A DNA stretch of 4,987 bases from a virus. Its lineage: Duplodnaviria > Heunggongvirae > Uroviricota > Caudoviricetes. The DNA lies in the IMG/VR virus record IMGVR_UViG_2713896783_000037, one strand, 5' to 3'. The notes under the pieces are model-generated. The model saw only the letters and a program-made list of their open reading frames with translations, was not told the DNA's origin and made no database searches. Shown in pieces: positions 1 to 4,987 of the stretch (position 1 is the stretch's first letter; each line of letters opens with the position of its first letter). Made by a program: the position numbers and the translations under genes.

Positions 1-45
1 ATAAAACCGGGTGATGCAAAAGTAGCCGTTTGATTCACAAGGCCA

Positions 46-74
46 TTGACGCATCGCCCGGTTAGTTTTAACCT
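46..74 (+). promoter_or_regulatory. Candidate sigma70 promoter for the tRNA gene (TTGACG-17 bp-TAACCT)
   Basis: TTGACG at 46-51 and TAACCT at 69-74 with a 17-bp spacer, about 40 bp upstream of the mature tRNA 5' end. The -10 hexamer is weak; this is a pattern match only. Confidence 0.25.
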
Positions 75-114
75 TGTCCACCGTGATTCACGTTCGTGAA
101 CATGTCCTTTCAGG

Positions 115-190
115 GCCGATATAGCTCAGTTGGTAGAGCAGCGCATTCGTAATGCGAAGGTCGTAGGTTCGACTCCTATTATCGGCACCA
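115..190 (+). tRNA. thrW: tRNA-Thr, anticodon CGU
   Basis: 76-nt cloverleaf: acceptor stem GCCGATA/TATCGGC, D-loop AGCTCAGTTGGTAGAGC, anticodon loop containing CGT, T-arm GGTTCGACTCC, encoded 3' CCA. Matches my recollection of enterobacterial thrW. Confidence 0.9.
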
Positions 191-204
191 TTTAAATCAA
201 TAAG

Positions 205-1179
205 TTACACATCATTAGTACCTTCCTTATTTTTTGACTGGGACAAATTTGGGACCGATGGGTTCAGGATCGAGTCTATTTGCCGTGCGTGTTCGGTAAG
301 GTGATTAGGTGCAAGGTGAGCATATCGACGAACCATTTCGATAGACTCCCAGCCTCCCATTTCCTGTAACACTGACAACGGGACTCCGGCTTGAACCAGC
401 CAACTTGCCCAGGTGTGTCTCAAGTCGTGAAATCTGAAATCATCAATACCAGCCCGTCTCAGCGCCGCTTTCCAGGCTGTGTTTGCGTCATACCGCATCT
501 TCCTTACTGTTGGCGCTTTCGTTCCGTCTGGTTTGGTACAGCTTTCCTTGTACACAAATACCCAACGGTGATGATTACCGATTTGTTTTTTCAATACGCG
601 ACATGCAGTATCATTCAGCGCAACGCCAATTGCGCGGTTTGATTTACTCTCTTCCGGGTTTATCCATGCCACCCGGCGCTGCATATCTATTTGTTGCCAT
701 TCAAGGTTGATGATGTTCGAGCGTCTTAAGCCTGTTGCCAGTGCAAATTCAACAACAGACTTTAATGGCTCCGGACATTCATCAATCAGCCTTTGTGCTT
801 CATGGGGCTCCAGCCAGCGGAGCCGTTTATTCTTTGGTTGAGGCACTTTAATAATTGGTGCCTTATCGAGCATTTTCCATTCACGCTCTGCGGCTCTTAG
901 CAGGGCCTTTATAAATGAAAGATGCGTAGCCTTCGTTGCAACGGACGCTGGTTTTGGCGTGTATTCTGGAACAGGTTTCCCTTTTTTTCTGCATGCTTCT
1001 GCCCTGAGTTTCCAGTTTTCCTCATGACGCCGGTTCGTCATTTTCTGCATTGCTGAATAAATTTTTGATTCAGTAATGTCTCTTAGTTGCATTCCTGCGA
1101 AATGTTGAAGCCAGAATCCGATCTGCTTTCCATTGAGCCTGTTTCTCTGCGCGACGTTCGCGGCGGCGTGTTTGTGCAT
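205..1179 (-). CDS. int: Tyrosine recombinase (phage integrase), 5'-truncated; catalytic domain intact
   Basis: Catalytic signature residues are present: R in ATGLRRSN, H-x-x-R in [11 protein letters not shown] in VRRYAHL. The stop is 15 bp from the tRNA 3' end. Integrase-derived sequence begins only at about 1122; the first 19 codons of the ORF ([19 protein letters not shown]) are lambda N coding DNA read in the +1 frame, and an in-frame stop lies at 1201-1203. The N-terminal (arm-binding) region of a full-length integrase of this kind therefore appears to be missing. Confidence 0.8.
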
Positions 1180-1183
1180 CCAT
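1124..1183 (-). pseudogene. N: Antiterminator N, 5' fragment (first 20 codons only)
   Basis: ATG at 1183-1181 is preceded by AGGAGAATCCAG and encodes [20 protein letters not shown], the arginine-rich boxB-binding N-terminus of lambda N. After codon 20 the sequence switches to integrase DNA and the N frame runs on as [17 protein letters not shown] to a stop at 1070. Confidence 0.8.
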
Positions 1184-1340
1184 CTGGATTCTCCTGTTAG
1201 TTAGCTTTGGTTGTGTGTGGGAGTCGTAGTCCTGAACGAAAACACCCCGCAATGGCACATTGGCTGCTAATCCGGATTCGCACTTCCGGCCAATGCTTCG
1301 TTTCGTATCACACACACCAAAGCCTTCTGCTTTGAATGCT

Positions 1341-1371
1341 GCCCTTCTTCAGGGCTTAATTTTTAAGAGCA
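1341..1371 (-). promoter_or_regulatory. nutL (boxA plus boxB hairpin)
   Basis: On the minus strand: TGCTCTTAA (boxA-like) followed by GCCCTGAAGAAGGGC (boxB stem-loop, identical to lambda nutL boxB as I recall it). Lies in the pL leader upstream of the N start. Confidence 0.7.
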
Positions 1372-1404
1372 TCACCTTCATGGTGGTTAGTGCGTCCTGC
1401 TGAT

Positions 1405-1473
1405 GTGCTTAGTATCACCGCTAGTGGTATTTGTGTCAACACCGCCAGAGATAATTTATCACCGCAGATGGTT
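1405..1473 (-). promoter_or_regulatory. pL promoter with operators OL1, OL2, OL3
   Basis: Minus-strand -35 TTGACA (plus 1434-1439) and -10 GATACT (plus 1411-1416). Three 17-bp cI/Cro operator sites: OL1 1413-1429 TATCACCGCTAGTGGTA, OL2 1437-1453 CAACACCGCCAGAGATA, OL3 1457-1473 TATCACCGCAGATGGTT. Confidence 0.85.
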
Positions 1474-1554
1474 ATCTGTATGTTTTTTATATAGATTTAT
1501 TTTTTGCAGGGTTGTGTGGCTTGGGAGGTGATCGAGAGATCAGAATTGCGTTGT

Positions 1555-1944
1555 TTAGTGAGTTGCACCTATTAATTTTAAAATAAATACAATTGGTGTT
1601 TTTCGAGTTTTTCTTAACTCTTCATGCAGCTCCGTTCTCAGAATATATGATTTTTCGAGTTTGAAATTCTTGCGACCAGGCGTCTTATTGCCAGGCTCAG
1701 GAAGTGGAAGGCGTGTTTGAATGTCGAGTGGTGGACAGTCATAGAAGTAAATTCTATAAAGCTCAAGCGGTTCCCTACGTTCTTGTGATTGATGTTTTCC
1801 ATTAAGATGGGAAAGAACCATTGACCATATTACTTTCATTATGCATTGCGCAGTCAGTTCATGCTCGGCGAAGTGTTTACGATGCGTAGCATGAACACGC
1901 TGCATGAAAAAACCCGCATCAATTAAAATTGCTGCTTTCTTCAT
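1555..1944 (-). CDS. Hypothetical protein (129 aa, basic) in the rexA/rexB position of the immunity region
   Basis: The only ORF in the six-frame track between OL and cI. ATG at 1944-1942 with a weak GGGA Shine-Dalgarno. AT-rich relative to flanking lambda-like DNA. No family recognised; the N-terminal MKKAAILIDAGFF resembles the first strand-Asp motif of PIN/NYN-type folds, but this is a weak impression only. The last ~16 codons lie in DNA homologous to lambda's non-coding region right of OL. Confidence 0.5.
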   Translation of the reverse strand: MKKAAILIDAGFFMQRVHATHRKHFAEHELTAQCIMKVIWSMVLSHLNGKHQSQERREPLELYRIYFYDCPPLDIQTRLPLPEPGNKTPGRKNFKLEKSYILRTELHEELRKTRKTPIVFILKLIGATH

Positions 1945-1953
1945 AAGAGTCCC

Positions 1954-2014
1954 AAAAAAATAGCCCAGAGCCGTTATGCAGATATTAACAATTGTCTGCG
2001 AACGGGGCTGGGCT
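1954..2014 (-). terminator. Intrinsic terminator immediately downstream of cI
   Basis: On the minus strand: AGCCCAGCCCCGTT...AACGGCTCTGGGCT imperfect GC-rich stem (7+5 bp with a 2-nt internal mismatch, inner GCAGA/TCTGC pairing) followed by ATTTTTTT. Begins 57 nt after the cI stop and ends 9 nt before the ORF129 ATG. Confidence 0.6.
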
Positions 2015-2024
2015 TGGTTTAATT

Positions 2025-2054
2025 AATCTATGCCAAGTTGACTGTGCCGTCAAC
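2025..2054 (-). promoter_or_regulatory. Candidate promoter (TTGACG-17-TAGATT) overlapped by the inverted repeat GTTGAC-N6-GTCAAC
   Basis: Minus-strand -35 TTGACG (plus 2048-2053) and -10 TAGATT (plus 2025-2030) with a 17-bp spacer. A perfect 6-bp inverted repeat at plus 2037-2054 overlaps the -35. Pattern only. Confidence 0.25.
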
Positions 2055-2071
2055 ATAAAACTTACTTCCTA

Positions 2072-2788
<717 letters not shown>

Positions 2789-2796
2789 TTAAATCT

Positions 2797-2860
2797 ATCA
2801 CCGCAAGGGATAAATATCTAACACCGCGCGTGTTGACTACTTTACCTCTGGCGGTGATAA
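2797..2860. promoter_or_regulatory. Right operator OR3-OR2-OR1 with divergent promoters PRM (leftward) and PR (rightward)
   Basis: OR3 2797-2813 TATCACCGCAAGGGATA, OR2 2819-2835 TAACACCGCGCGTGTTG, OR1 2843-2859 TACCTCTGGCGGTGATA. PR -35 TTGACT 2832-2837 and -10 GATAAT 2855-2860. cro Shine-Dalgarno TAAGGAGG at 2873-2880. Confidence 0.92.
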
Positions 2861-2876
2861 TGGTTGCATGTACTAA

Positions 2877-3086
<210 letters not shown>

Positions 3087-3093
3087 ATAACCC

Positions 3094-3125
3094 CGCTCTT
3101 ACACATTCCAGCCCTGAAAAAGGGC
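3094..3125 (+). promoter_or_regulatory. nutR (boxA CGCTCTTACACATTCCA plus boxB GCCCTGAAAAAGGGC), followed by the tR1 region
   Basis: boxA at 3094-3110, boxB hairpin at 3111-3125. The following 3126-3200 contains the palindromes ACACC-TAT-GGTGT and GTATGCA-TTTATT-TGCATAC, typical of the lambda tR1 rho-dependent terminator region. Confidence 0.8.
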
Positions 3126-3204
3126 ATCCAATTAAACCACACCTATGGTGTATGCATTTATTTGCATACATTCAATCAATTGTTATCTAAGGAAATACTT
3201 ACAT

Positions 3205-3498
3205 ATGGTTCGTGCAAACAAACGCAACGAGGCTCTACGAATCGAGAGTGCGTTGCTTAACAAAATCGCAATGCTTGGAACTGAGAAGACAGCGGAAGCT
3301 GTGGGAGTTGATAAGTCGCAGATCAGCAGGTGGAAGAGAGACTGGATTCCAAAGTTCTCAATGCTGCTTGCTGTTCTTGAATGGGGGGTCGTTGACGACG
3401 ACATGGCTCGATTGGCGCGACAAGTTGCTGCGATTCTCACCAATAAAAAACGCCCGGCGGCAACCGAGCGTTCTGAACAAATCCAGATGGAGTTCTGA
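3205..3498 (+). CDS. cII: Transcriptional activator CII
   Basis: 97-aa product MVRANKRNEALRIESALLNK...ERSEQIQMEF, identical to lambda CII as I recall it. True start is the ATG at 3205 (RBS TAAGGAAATACTTACAT), not the upstream ATG at 3145 used by the ORF track. Confidence 0.95.
   Translation: MVRANKRNEALRIESALLNKIAMLGTEKTAEAVGVDKSQISRWKRDWIPKFSMLLAVLEWGVVDDDMARLARQVAAILTNKKRPAATERSEQIQMEF
3214..3227 (-). promoter_or_regulatory. CII-binding site of PRE (TTGC-N6-TTGC)
   Basis: Plus GCAAACAAACGCAA is the reverse complement of TTGCGTTTGTTTGC, the direct-repeat CII recognition motif flanking the -35 of the leftward establishment promoter, embedded in the first codons of cII as in lambda. Confidence 0.6.
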
Positions 3499-3520
3499 GG
3501 TCATTACTGGATCTATCAAC
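3442..3520 (-). ncRNA. oop: oop antisense RNA (overlaps the cII 3' end)
   Basis: Minus strand reads GTTGATAGATCCAGTAATGACCTCAGAACTCCATCTGGATTTGTTCAGAACGCTCGGTTGCCGCCGGGCGTTTTTTATT. This matches my recollection of lambda oop, including the terminal GC hairpin and U-run. A pO-like promoter (CATAAT -10) lies just upstream within the start of O. Confidence 0.7.
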
Positions 3521-3530
3521 AGGAGTCATT

Positions 3531-4329
3531 ATGACAAATACAGCAAAAATACTCAACTTCGGCAGAGGTAACTTTGCCGGACAGGAGCGTAATGTGGCAG
3601 ATCTCGATGATGGTTACGCCAGACTATCAAATATGCTGCTTGAGGCTTATTCGGGCGCAGATCTGACCAAGCGACAGTTTAAAGTGCTGCTTGCCATTCT
3701 GCGTAAAACCTATGGNNNNNNNNNNNNNNNNNNNNNNNNNNNNNNNNNNNNNNNNNNNNNNNNNNATGAATATTATCAAGCAGCAAGGCGGCATGTTTGG
3801 ACCAAATAAAAACATCTCAGAATGGTGTATCCCTCAAAACGAGGGAAAATCCCCTAAAACGAGGGATAAAACATCCCTCAAATTGGGGGATTGCTATCCC
3901 TCAAATTGGGGGATTGCTATCCCTCAAAACAGGGGGACACAAAAGACACTATTACAAAAGAAAAAAGAAANNNNNNNNNNNNNNNNNNNNNNNNNNNNNN
4001 NNNNNNNNNNNNNNNNNNNNGCAGAGTGGATGTTTGACATGGTGAAGACCATCGCGCCATCAGCCAGAAAACCGAATTTTGCTGGGTGGGCTAACGATAT
4101 CCGCCTGATGCGTGAACGTGACGGACGTAACCACCGCGATATGTGTGTGCTTTTCCGCTGGGCCTGCCAGGACAACTTCTGGTCCGGTAACGTGCTGAGT
4201 CCGGCCAAACTCCGCGACAAGTGGACCCAGCTCGAAATCAACCGTAACAAGCAACAGGCAGGCNTGANAGCCAGCAAACCAAAACTCGACCTGACAAACA
4301 CNGACTGGATTTACGGGGTGGATNTATGA
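3531..4329 (+). CDS. O: Replication initiator O (lambda-type), interrupted by assembly gaps
   Basis: N-terminus MTNTAKILNFGRGNFAGQERNVADLDDGYARLSNMLLEAYSGADLTKRQFKVLLAILRKTYG. Middle segment MNIIKQQGGMFGPNKNISEWCIPQNEGKSPKTRDKTSLKLGDCYPS. C-terminal domain AEWMFDMVKTIAPSARKPNFAGWANDIRLMRERDGRNHRDMCVLFRWACQDNFWSGNVLSPAKLRDKW...DWIYGVD, with the ATGA stop/start overlap onto the P start. Two 50-N runs (3716-3765, 3971-4020), isolated Ns at 4264, 4268, 4302 and 4324, and a 23-bp duplication make frame continuity undeterminable. Confidence 0.85.
3716..3765. other. Assembly gap (50 N) inside gene O
   Basis: Run of 50 N. The corresponding lambda segment is about 99 bp by my recollection, so the gap length looks arbitrary. 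Confidence 0.95.
3829..3937 (+). repeat. Origin iterons (O-binding sites) inside gene O; five copies, followed by an A-rich tract
   Basis: Five inverted-repeat iterons of the form ATCCCTCAAA...GGGGGAT, starting at 3829, 3849, 3873, 3896 and 3919 (spacing 20-24 bp), then CAAAAGACACTATTACAAAAGAAAAAAGAAA running into the gap. Lambda has four as I recall; the third here is present twice. Confidence 0.85.
3874..3919 (+). repeat. Perfect 23-bp tandem duplication (TCCCTCAAATTGGGGGATTGCTA x2) within the origin iterons
   Basis: 3874-3896 and 3897-3919 are identical. 23 is not a multiple of 3, so the O reading frame is shifted after this point relative to lambda (KLGDCYPS then NWGIAIPQNRGTQKTLLQKKKE instead of KQGDTKDTITKEKRK). 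Confidence 0.8.
3971..4020. other. Assembly gap (50 N) inside gene O, just after the origin A-rich tract
   Basis: Run of 50 N. The corresponding lambda segment is about 124 bp by my recollection, so the gap length looks arbitrary. Confidence 0.95.
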
Positions 4330-4637
4330 AAAACATCGCCGCACAGATGGTTAACTTTGACCGTGAGCAGATGCGTCGGATCGCCAACATCGATAACCAG
4401 GACATGACGATATCGGTCTGGGTCTTTCCTGATACTGATATTTCAGATGTATCGCGTGAGTTAATTGCGGCAATTAAACAGGGGTATCTAACAGTAAAAG
4501 CCGCCGGGGTATGGGCGGGGGGCATTGAAACACCTTCGGTGGAAACTCCATCGGAAGGCTCTAAATTTTTTGGTTTTGATATGGATAACGAATTCATCAG
4601 TGGTTTTGATGTAGGGGCATGGGGAGTATTACTCTGA
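4326..4637 (+). CDS. Chimeric ORF: first 21 codons of replication protein P fused to 82 codons of unrelated coding sequence
   Basis: [21 protein letters not shown] matches the lambda P N-terminus (nucleotide identity through 4389). From 4390 the sequence is unrelated ([45 protein letters not shown]...[11 protein letters not shown]). The frame stays open for 82 codons and ends in a TGATG stop/start overlap with the next ORF, suggesting the 3' end of a real gene. Confidence 0.55.
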
Positions 4638-4987
4638 TGGCGAAAAATGACTTTAAAGCGTTTGCAACTGATCGAAATGCCAATGTTATGTCGCAGGAGG
4701 AATGGGAAGCGTTGCCTGCGCTTATATCCGGATTTACAGCAGGGAAAGCATCCAGTGCGCAAGTCAATAAGGTTATTCGGCAGGCCAGCTTTATTGCTGC
4801 AGCTCTGGCCCAGTTTGTAAGTGATAAAACGCAACGGGATGTGCTTGATAATGGTGATCTGCCCGGTTTTGTTGAATTGCTGGGATCGGGGTTTGCTGTT
4901 GAATACCTGAGCCGCAAGAATCCGTTTGGCGATATCAAATCGGACGGCACGGTGAAAACGGCTCTTCAAAACCTTGGTTTGGGAGAA
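4637..4987 (+). CDS. Hypothetical protein, 5' part only (runs off window); possibly a phage tail-fibre N-terminal region
   Basis: ATG at 4637 overlaps the upstream stop (TGATG). Product [82 protein letters not shown]... has protein-like composition, whereas the opposite-strand ORF looks like antisense junk. The tail-fibre assignment is a pattern-level impression only. Confidence 0.55.

Follow-up and report, generated by a model that had tools for sequence, protein, structure and literature searches.

In phage lambda, the genes rexA-rexB are expressed in lysogens, and their products form a two-protein system that consists of a sensor and a membrane channel. The interval between cI and N is a mosaic hotspot that holds rexAB in lambda and bstA in the prophage BTP1, and the promoter of the repressor is probably shared with the genes placed there (PMC8585504). 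In the phages ev099, 2B8 and E212, a gene of 858 bp annotated as 'NYN domain-containing protein' is located between cI and N. Its product has 285 amino acids and belongs to phrog_5783; intact versions are ev099 gp48 (YP_009909946.1), 2B8 gp46, E212 QVW53964.1 and the copies of Stx2a phages. We found no experimental papers on this NYN family in the literature.

Sp1 of E. coli O157:H7 has been described as a 'highly degraded' lambdoid prophage that shows no excision, replication or packaging and in which mitomycin C induces the residual early genes (PMC2669165). CP-933H is the equivalent of Sp1 in strain EDL933 (PMC3355084). Here, we analyse a stretch of 4,987 nucleotides, referred to as the window throughout, and in particular an ORF of 129 codons that occupies the position next to cI. 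We conclude that this ORF is in all likelihood a pseudogene, namely the 5' 116 codons of a 285-codon NYN gene that was truncated in Sp1, with a probable insertion sequence (IS) scar at the joint.

The window and prophage Sp1

Many E. coli O157:H7 chromosomes match positions 1-3715 of the window with 100% identity, and at least 80% of this part is present in 204 complete genomes. Compared to Sp1 of strain Sakai, the same part shows 99.97% identity with one mismatch, and in the Sakai annotation thrW precedes the entry 'prophage Sp1, lambda-like phage'. The DNA of the window is that of prophage Sp1/CP-933H, integrated at thrW of E. coli O157:H7. A scan with Rfam gave no match besides the tRNA. 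The features of the window are collected in Table 1.

Table 1. Features of the window; positions are counted from its first nucleotide.
Feature	Position	Strand	Basis
tRNA-Thr (CGU), thrW, prophage integration site	115..190	+	ARAGORN, Rfam tRNA
Integrase pseudogene without N-terminus	205..1125	-	RefSeq 'site-specific integrase, incomplete, missing N-terminus'
Antiterminator N remnant, first 20 codons, joined to int'	1124..1183	-	ORF translation; ev099/lambda N homology starts at window 1123
Hairpin GCCCTGAAGAAGGGC (minus strand), which we take to be lambda nutL boxB	1341..1355	-	Hairpin found; segment lambda-homologous
PL promoter, TTGACA-17-GATACT	1439->1411	-	Promoter scan
OL1, OL2, OL3	1413-1429, 1437-1453, 1457-1473	-	Comparison with annotated lambda operators
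Lambda-like non-coding DNA, OL3 to rexB end in lambda	1474..1596		blastn against lambda and ev099
Foreign 13-codon tail PIVFILKLIGATH and stop	1555-1596	-	Read from lambda-homologous non-coding DNA; joint sequence
Deletion joint, probable IS629 excision scar	1595..1597		576 bp of ev099-type sequence absent
Native 5' part of NYN gene, codons 1-116	1597..1944	-	blastn against ev099
Intergenic upstream part of NYN cassette	1945..2067	-	Cassette boundary, promoter scan
cI repressor, lambda immunity type, intact	2072..2785	-	RefSeq name 'LexA family protein'
OR3-OR1 with PRM and PR	2796..2861	+	Alignment with annotated lambda operators; PR from promoter scan
Right of cI: OR/PRM/PR, cro, cII, damaged O, P remnant, tail-fibre gene start			

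In the immunity region, cI differs from lambda cI in 4 of 237 residues (233/237 identical), and the operators are nearly identical, with one mismatch each in OL1 and OR2 and one in the spacer adjacent to OR1. Since cI and the operators are this close to those of lambda, Sp1 is predicted from sequence to confer lambda immunity. The prediction fits the induction of the residual early genes by mitomycin C (PMC2669165).

On the leftward side, codons 1-20 of N run out of frame into the N-terminally truncated integrase. It follows from this N'-int' fusion that a large deletion, the second besides the one discussed below, removed the whole PL operon with cIII, kil, gam, bet, exo and xis. The fusion also gives rise to an ORF of 81 codons at 1070-1315, which is ECs_0272 in Sakai and is annotated there as 'phage early gene regulator'.

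On the rightward side, the start of P (region 4326-4987 of the window) is annotated as two partial CDSs that end at 4637, the position where the tail-fibre gene begins; the late region between P and the tail fibre is missing. The corresponding Sakai entries are ECs_0279 (pseudogene) and ECs_0280. Two runs of 50 Ns at 3716-3765 and 3971-4020 face gaps of 100 and 124 bases in Sakai and are therefore not one-for-one masks, and single Ns are found at 4264, 4268, 4302 and 4324. Because the lengths of the N runs differ from Sakai, the region of the O gene and the ori iterons is not colinear with the reference, and ORFs in that region are unreliable.

An NYN gene truncated after codon 116

The ORF at 1555-1944 lies on the minus strand, the same strand as cI, and runs from an ATG start through 129 codons to its stop. 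It is placed between the lambda-type cI (2072-2785) and OL (1413-1473), which is the slot of rexAB in lambda. Its product is basic, with a pI of 9.8 and 22 K+R versus 13 D+E residues. The GC content is 39.2% for the ORF, compared to 46.2% for cI and 46.0% for the whole window. Homology to lambda, as detected by blastn, covers window 1123-1597 (lambda 35300-35771), stops, and begins again at 2068 (lambda 37223), just outside the stop codon of cI. No DNA homology to lambda 35827-37222 was detected, and searches of Pfam, NCBIfam and PADLOC gave no match to Rex proteins. In ev099, a cassette of 988 bp with 41.0% GC replaces lambda 35827-37222, comprising rexB, rexA and a spacer; its edges are the rexB stop codon on one side and a point just outside the cI stop codon on the other. 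The initial annotation had read the slot in the same way, with rexAB absent, a single basic ORF on the cI strand in their place, and an AT-rich composition that suggests a separately acquired cassette.

A promoter-like site is located on the minus strand in the spacer between cI and the NYN gene (2053->2025, TTGACG-17-TAGATT, 9 of 12 matches) and is present in ev099 too. Promoter-like sites in this region are no more numerous than in shuffled sequences, and we take this site as no more than a lead for a promoter that belongs to the NYN gene itself.

The suggestion that the ORF could be an unrecognised and possibly active exclusion gene is not supported. Its sequence is already known: it is annotated in RefSeq and belongs to a degraded prophage that has long been described. 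In Sakai, the ORF is ECs_0273, a 'hypothetical protein' of the same length and position, and the product is WP_000708827.1, for which the newer PGAP name is 'PIN domain-containing protein'. For ECs_0273, no expression or phenotype data were found in the literature.

The truncation becomes evident by comparison with phage genomes. In a megablast search, two records span the whole query in two pieces over 1378 bp, whereas the query has 801 bp. Pairwise blastn aligns window 1123-1597 with ev099 locus 2823-3298 and window 1597-3715 with 3875-5993, and from these coordinates 576 bp are missing from the window. The missing 576 bp contain codons 117-285 together with the stop codon and the terminator. 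The block 1597-3715 is 99.6% identical to ev099 at the DNA level, and residues 1-116 are identical to the 285-aa phage protein at 115 of 116 positions, the exception being H51 in the window and R51 in the phage. The joint is located at 1596/1597. Homologues thus show that the ORF is what is left, at the 5' end, of a longer gene that was disrupted at a joint near 1600, an outcome that the initial annotation had foreseen together with a 3' end that crosses this joint. Longer versions next to cI-like repressors, whose existence it had raised, are found with 285 aa in ev099, 2B8, E212 and the Stx2a phages. It had put about 16 tail codons in DNA that is non-coding in lambda; the tail read from this DNA comprises 13 codons and a stop.

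Profile searches agree with this assignment for the retained part. Taken alone, the ORF gives no Pfam match even at E <= 10 and no NCBIfam or PADLOC match. PHROGs is the sole set that recognises it, through a match to phrog_5783 with E = 1.4e-41 that is limited to profile positions 1-108 of 246. One could argue from the short length and the AT-rich composition, and from nothing further, that the ORF is a chance open frame with no gene ancestry. We give this practically no credence in view of the phrog_5783 match and the agreement of 115 of 116 residues with a family that is conserved across Gammaproteobacteria (7035 hits). In addition, when the local 700 nt were shuffled 2000 times, an ATG-ORF of at least 129 codons arose in just 2 cases.

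The deleted stretch contains the intrinsic terminator that follows the intact gene in ev099 (locus 3357-3336). With this terminator gone in Sp1, the PRM transcript could read on through cI and the remnant and reach the N'-int' fusion, crossing OL/PL and nutL in antisense orientation. The start codon of the ORF is kept, and cI and PRM upstream are intact. Given these intact elements and the mitomycin C response of the Sp1 early genes, the remnant may still be transcribed together with cI from PRM and a polypeptide may be made.

The Stx2a-converting O157 phages carry an identical intact gene of 285 aa in the same slot, within a different immunity region. The start of their match at 1597 had suggested that they share the breakpoint of the window; this is ruled out, as they carry the intact gene. 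Some O157 strains may hold the intact NYN gene and the Sp1 remnant together. In Stx2_EH0505 (locus L017, 3491-4348) and about 48 similar records, the NYN gene lies between a 933W-type N and a different repressor, and Stx2a phages have an ORF of 113 aa between the NYN gene and the repressor. In E. coli GPEC1031 (locus L007, 6166-7023), an NYN gene of the full-length type is annotated as two partial ORFs (pseudogene), which is an independent decay of the gene; the lambda-like prophage of this strain also has IS2 in bet and IS100 in P. Further broken alleles are P0006, P0007 and P0009.

The deletion joint and its IS629 alleles

In the protein database, every truncated relative breaks off after Thr116, and the continuations differ. 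We compared the joint alleles as the bases between CTCGAAAAACA and AATTGTATTT in gene orientation. In the intact phages, the joint reads GCCTTAAG... and the gene continues. AR-0427 has GCCATAACC, a plain deletion of about 569 bp with no IS. In TR01, TW14359, EC4115 and SS52 (60 complete genomes), the joint is GCCA[TAA]-IS629/IS1203 (1310 bp)-[TAA]CC, an insertion into an AR-0427-type site with a clean 3-bp target duplication. FDAARGOS_293 and others (38 genomes) carry the IS in opposite orientation without duplication, GCCT-IS-CC, an allele that is no simple derivative of the other alleles seen. The right-hand IS junction of this type recurs in 644-PT8, in which the NYN remnant, cI, cro, cII, O and P are deleted up to the tail-fibre gene. 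The SRA contig L018 reads G-TCA-TAACC and keeps the last three IS bases, while 9.1_Anguil has GCC and encodes a protein of 126 aa (P0001). Among the joint alleles are CC, GCC, GCCATAACC, GTCATAACC and the two IS orientations. The window shares the joint CC with Sakai, EDL933 and 86-24. This is the commonest IS-free allele: 108 complete genomes hold at least 80% of the IS-free joint query, and nearly all of those sampled are 100% identical to the window. This prevalence could speak against the pseudogene reading, but it is explained equally well by clonal descent.

With at least 7 alleles among O157 genomes (L031-L035, L018, L019), this IS629/IS1203 site is hypervariable. In contig L019, the NYN remnant is joined to the P4-like genes AlpA, Ash and primase. 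In 38 genomes, IS1203 sits at the NYN joint and not in gene O; the replication gene O of F6294 is interrupted by another copy of IS1203.

The alleles end in tails that give proteins of 129, 126, 154 and 127 aa, and an annotated partial CDS of 118 codons (354 nt) stops within the IS. They differ in tail frame, and one lineage is without the ORF entirely. The PGAP labels 'frameshifted' and 'incomplete' are confined to joint alleles other than that of the window. With a tail that varies in frame and length, an IS within the ORF and the loss of the ORF in one lineage, the ORF shows no sign of constraint.

IS629 is present at the joint in related genomes, among which a target duplication and the corresponding empty site are also seen, and the IS-free alleles differ by few bases. 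For this reason, the joint in the window is, from sequence comparison, best read as the scar of an IS excision. Relative to AR-0427, the 7 bases GCCATAA are absent from the window, and this loss ends exactly at the edge of the target duplication. In the window, in L018, which keeps the IS-terminal TCA, and in 644-PT8, the losses or the bases kept lie directly at the IS boundary. Excision of IS629 that depends on IEE is known to leave adjacent deletions ranging from a few nucleotides to over 40 kb (PMC9943667). A polymorphic IS629 site of Sp1, IS.29, is listed in PMC3271280 and may be the joint described here.

The same features weigh against a truncation in which IS629 played no role at the window joint, with independent small deletions at a slippage-prone A-rich site and a later insertion of IS629 in some lineages. 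A 7-nt direct repeat AAAAACA does flank the deleted segment in ev099, and AR-0427 is IS-free and represents the exact empty site for the TR01-type insertion. However, the repeat-mediated joint AAAAACA-CATAACC is seen in no allele, so that a deletion between the direct repeats as sole cause is ruled out, and neither the exact boundary of the GCCATAA loss nor the IS-terminal bases in L018 are in line with slippage, while IS-anchored variation is documented for IS629 with IEE (PMC9943667). We regard this alternative as unlikely, if still worth considering. The ORF would be a pseudogene here too, and the origin of the joint alone would differ.

We therefore favour the IS-excision reading and propose the following course. 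The parent NYN-domain (PIN-like) gene is a stand-alone cargo ('moron') cassette that takes the place of rexAB between cI and OL in some lambdoid phages. A deletion of about 569 bp would have taken codons 118-285 along with the stop codon and the intrinsic terminator; IS629/IS1203 would then have inserted at the deletion joint; and an imprecise excision of the IS would have lost the 7 further bases and produced the joint seen in the window. Across this joint, reading continues for 13 codons into lambda-like non-coding DNA before a stop is reached. We infer the order of deletion, insertion and excision from the structure of the alleles, not from phylogeny.

The intact NYN family and known systems

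The intact protein matches the Pfam NYN domain (PF01936) with 36.8 bits, above the gathering cut-off of 24.2 bits, at residues 158-205 and thus in the region deleted in the window. It also gives a weaker match to TIGR00288 and, in PADLOC-DB v2, weak local matches at residues 155-206 to HEC-09 (E = 2e-4) and 'NYN' (E = 1.4e-3). For the retained part, NYN descent is established through its 115/116 identity to this Pfam-passing protein and through the match to phrog_5783. A homologue search with the ORF as query gave truncated or fragmentary E. coli relatives exclusively, and the full-length query was required to reveal the family. It comprises 7035 proteins at E <= 1e-3, typically of 260-290 aa, with hosts among Enterobacterales, Pseudomonas, Halomonas, Shewanella, Acinetobacter and Proteus.

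The core of PIN-like domains is a five-stranded parallel sheet. An AlphaFold model of the intact protein, built from 38 sequences, has a mean pLDDT of 87 and main strands at residues 3-9, 61-69, 116-120, 182-186 and 205-209. Comparison of the model fold matches NYN structures, and FEN-type 5' nucleases come after these. A PDB sequence search with the family profile gave nothing at E <= 1, so that the fold comparison was needed. The segment AAILIDAGFF, from which a PIN/NYN-type fold had been tentatively guessed in the initial annotation, corresponds to strand 1, which ends in the invariant Asp9; with a parent protein that passes the Pfam NYN cut-off, the guess proved correct.

According to the model, the window ORF retains strand 1 with Asp9, helices 1-2, strand 2 with Asp69 and the helix 98-112, that is, two of the five main strands of the parent. 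An alignment of 37 full-length members has 66 columns with at least 90% identity, of which 18 fall in residues 1-116 and 48 in residues 117-285. The conserved acidic residues are D9, D69, D153, D164, D170, D181, D189, D191, D205, D209, E221 and D224, and D9 and D69 are the only ones of these twelve that the window retains. Lost are, among others, D164, D170, the G188-D189-S-D191-F192 motif (GDSDF) and the Lys/Arg-rich C-terminal tail. From two of five strands in the model and two of twelve conserved acidic residues, we infer that the remnant cannot be an active NYN nuclease. Any product of the remnant is expected to be inert or unstable, and the ORF is very probably an ordinary dead gene.

It is conceivable that the fragment is retained for a function, either as a dominant-negative form of, or antidote to, the full-length NYN protein of Stx2a phages, or as a self-immunity element at the level of its 5' DNA, similar to aba of BstA. 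Its start codon, upstream region, cI and PRM are intact, the Stx2a phages of O157 have identical full-length copies, and the self-immunity element of BstA consists of 29 bp upstream and the first 34 bp of the gene (PMC8585504). Nevertheless, sister alleles alter the frame or length of the tail, hold an IS in the ORF or delete it, the fragment is predicted in the model to be without three of the five main strands, and the identity among O157 copies is all accounted for by clonal descent. We consider a retained function very improbable. Even a shade less probable is the broader proposal that the PRM-transcribed fragment, or its 5' DNA, modulates the NYN protein of Stx2a phages and that the intact family is a single-gene anti-phage RNase moving between the moron slots cI-N, Q-holin and int-adjacent. 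If this were true, a decayed prophage would supply an antidote or dominant-negative factor against the weapon of a sister prophage.

The intact gene is found in several genomic contexts. Among 5426 complete genomes of E. coli, 74 have a full-length copy. The interval between cI and N is its position in the lambdoid, P22-like and Stx2a phages of E. coli. A homologue is located on the opposite strand between the antiterminator Q and the holin in prophages of E. albertii and Edwardsiella (L036-L041), next to the integrase end in a Pseudomonas syringae prophage (L012-L015), isolated and immediately downstream of glmS in Proteus (L008-L011), and at an isolated chromosomal site in Pantoea (L042). 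These homologues in other cargo slots show 47-87% identity. The NYN gene behaves as a mobile single-gene module. Judged by where it lies and by its domain, the intact gene would most likely encode a lysogen-expressed RNase that excludes or aborts superinfecting phage, a proposal to which we assign a little less than an even chance.

By itself, the window matters little, as it adds another decayed gene in a highly degraded prophage. ECs_0273/WP_000708827.1 is better annotated as a truncated NYN-gene remnant than as a protein, and the hypervariable IS629 joint could serve as a marker for O157 strains. The intact parent is a widespread NYN cargo gene that occupies three of the classic moron slots of lambdoid phages, among them that of rexAB and the cI-N interval of Stx2a phages, and is a reasonable candidate for a prophage exclusion nuclease. 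It is the 285-aa gene and not the fragment that is worth testing, with a putative function that is absent from the window.

Compared to described systems, the window ORF is the same locus as ECs_0273/WP_000708827.1, the annotation of which is silent on the truncation. With the 285-aa lambdoid NYN protein, it shares residues 1-116, the slot between cI and N/OL and the strand, and it differs by lacking residues 117-285, the Pfam match, GDSDF, three of the five strands, the basic tail and the terminator. Among nucleases of PF01936, such as the MARF1 NYN domain (PDB 5yaa) and the LabA-like VPA0982 (2qip), the parent stands out by long core insertions and the Lys/Arg-rich tail; nuclease activity is predicted for the parent, and the window copy is a domain fragment. 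Further NYN-domain nucleases are Regnase-1/MCPIP1 and B. subtilis Rae1/YacP. The joint resembles IS629 excision in EHEC as promoted by IEE in its IS alleles, its exact empty site, its scars with small losses or IS ends, and a large IS-adjacent deletion (PMC9943667), although excision at this joint is putative. BstA of the Salmonella prophage BTP1 is likewise encoded by one gene that follows directly on that of the repressor; the proteins are unrelated, and abortive infection has been demonstrated for BstA, whereas the role of the NYN protein is predicted (PMC8585504). With lambda rexA-rexB, the NYN cassette agrees in slot, strand, position downstream of cI and AT-rich composition (40.9% GC for rexAB versus 41.0% for the NYN cassette). 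There is no sequence relationship between the two, and in contrast to rexAB, the NYN cassette contributes a single gene for a predicted soluble nuclease, which is broken here.
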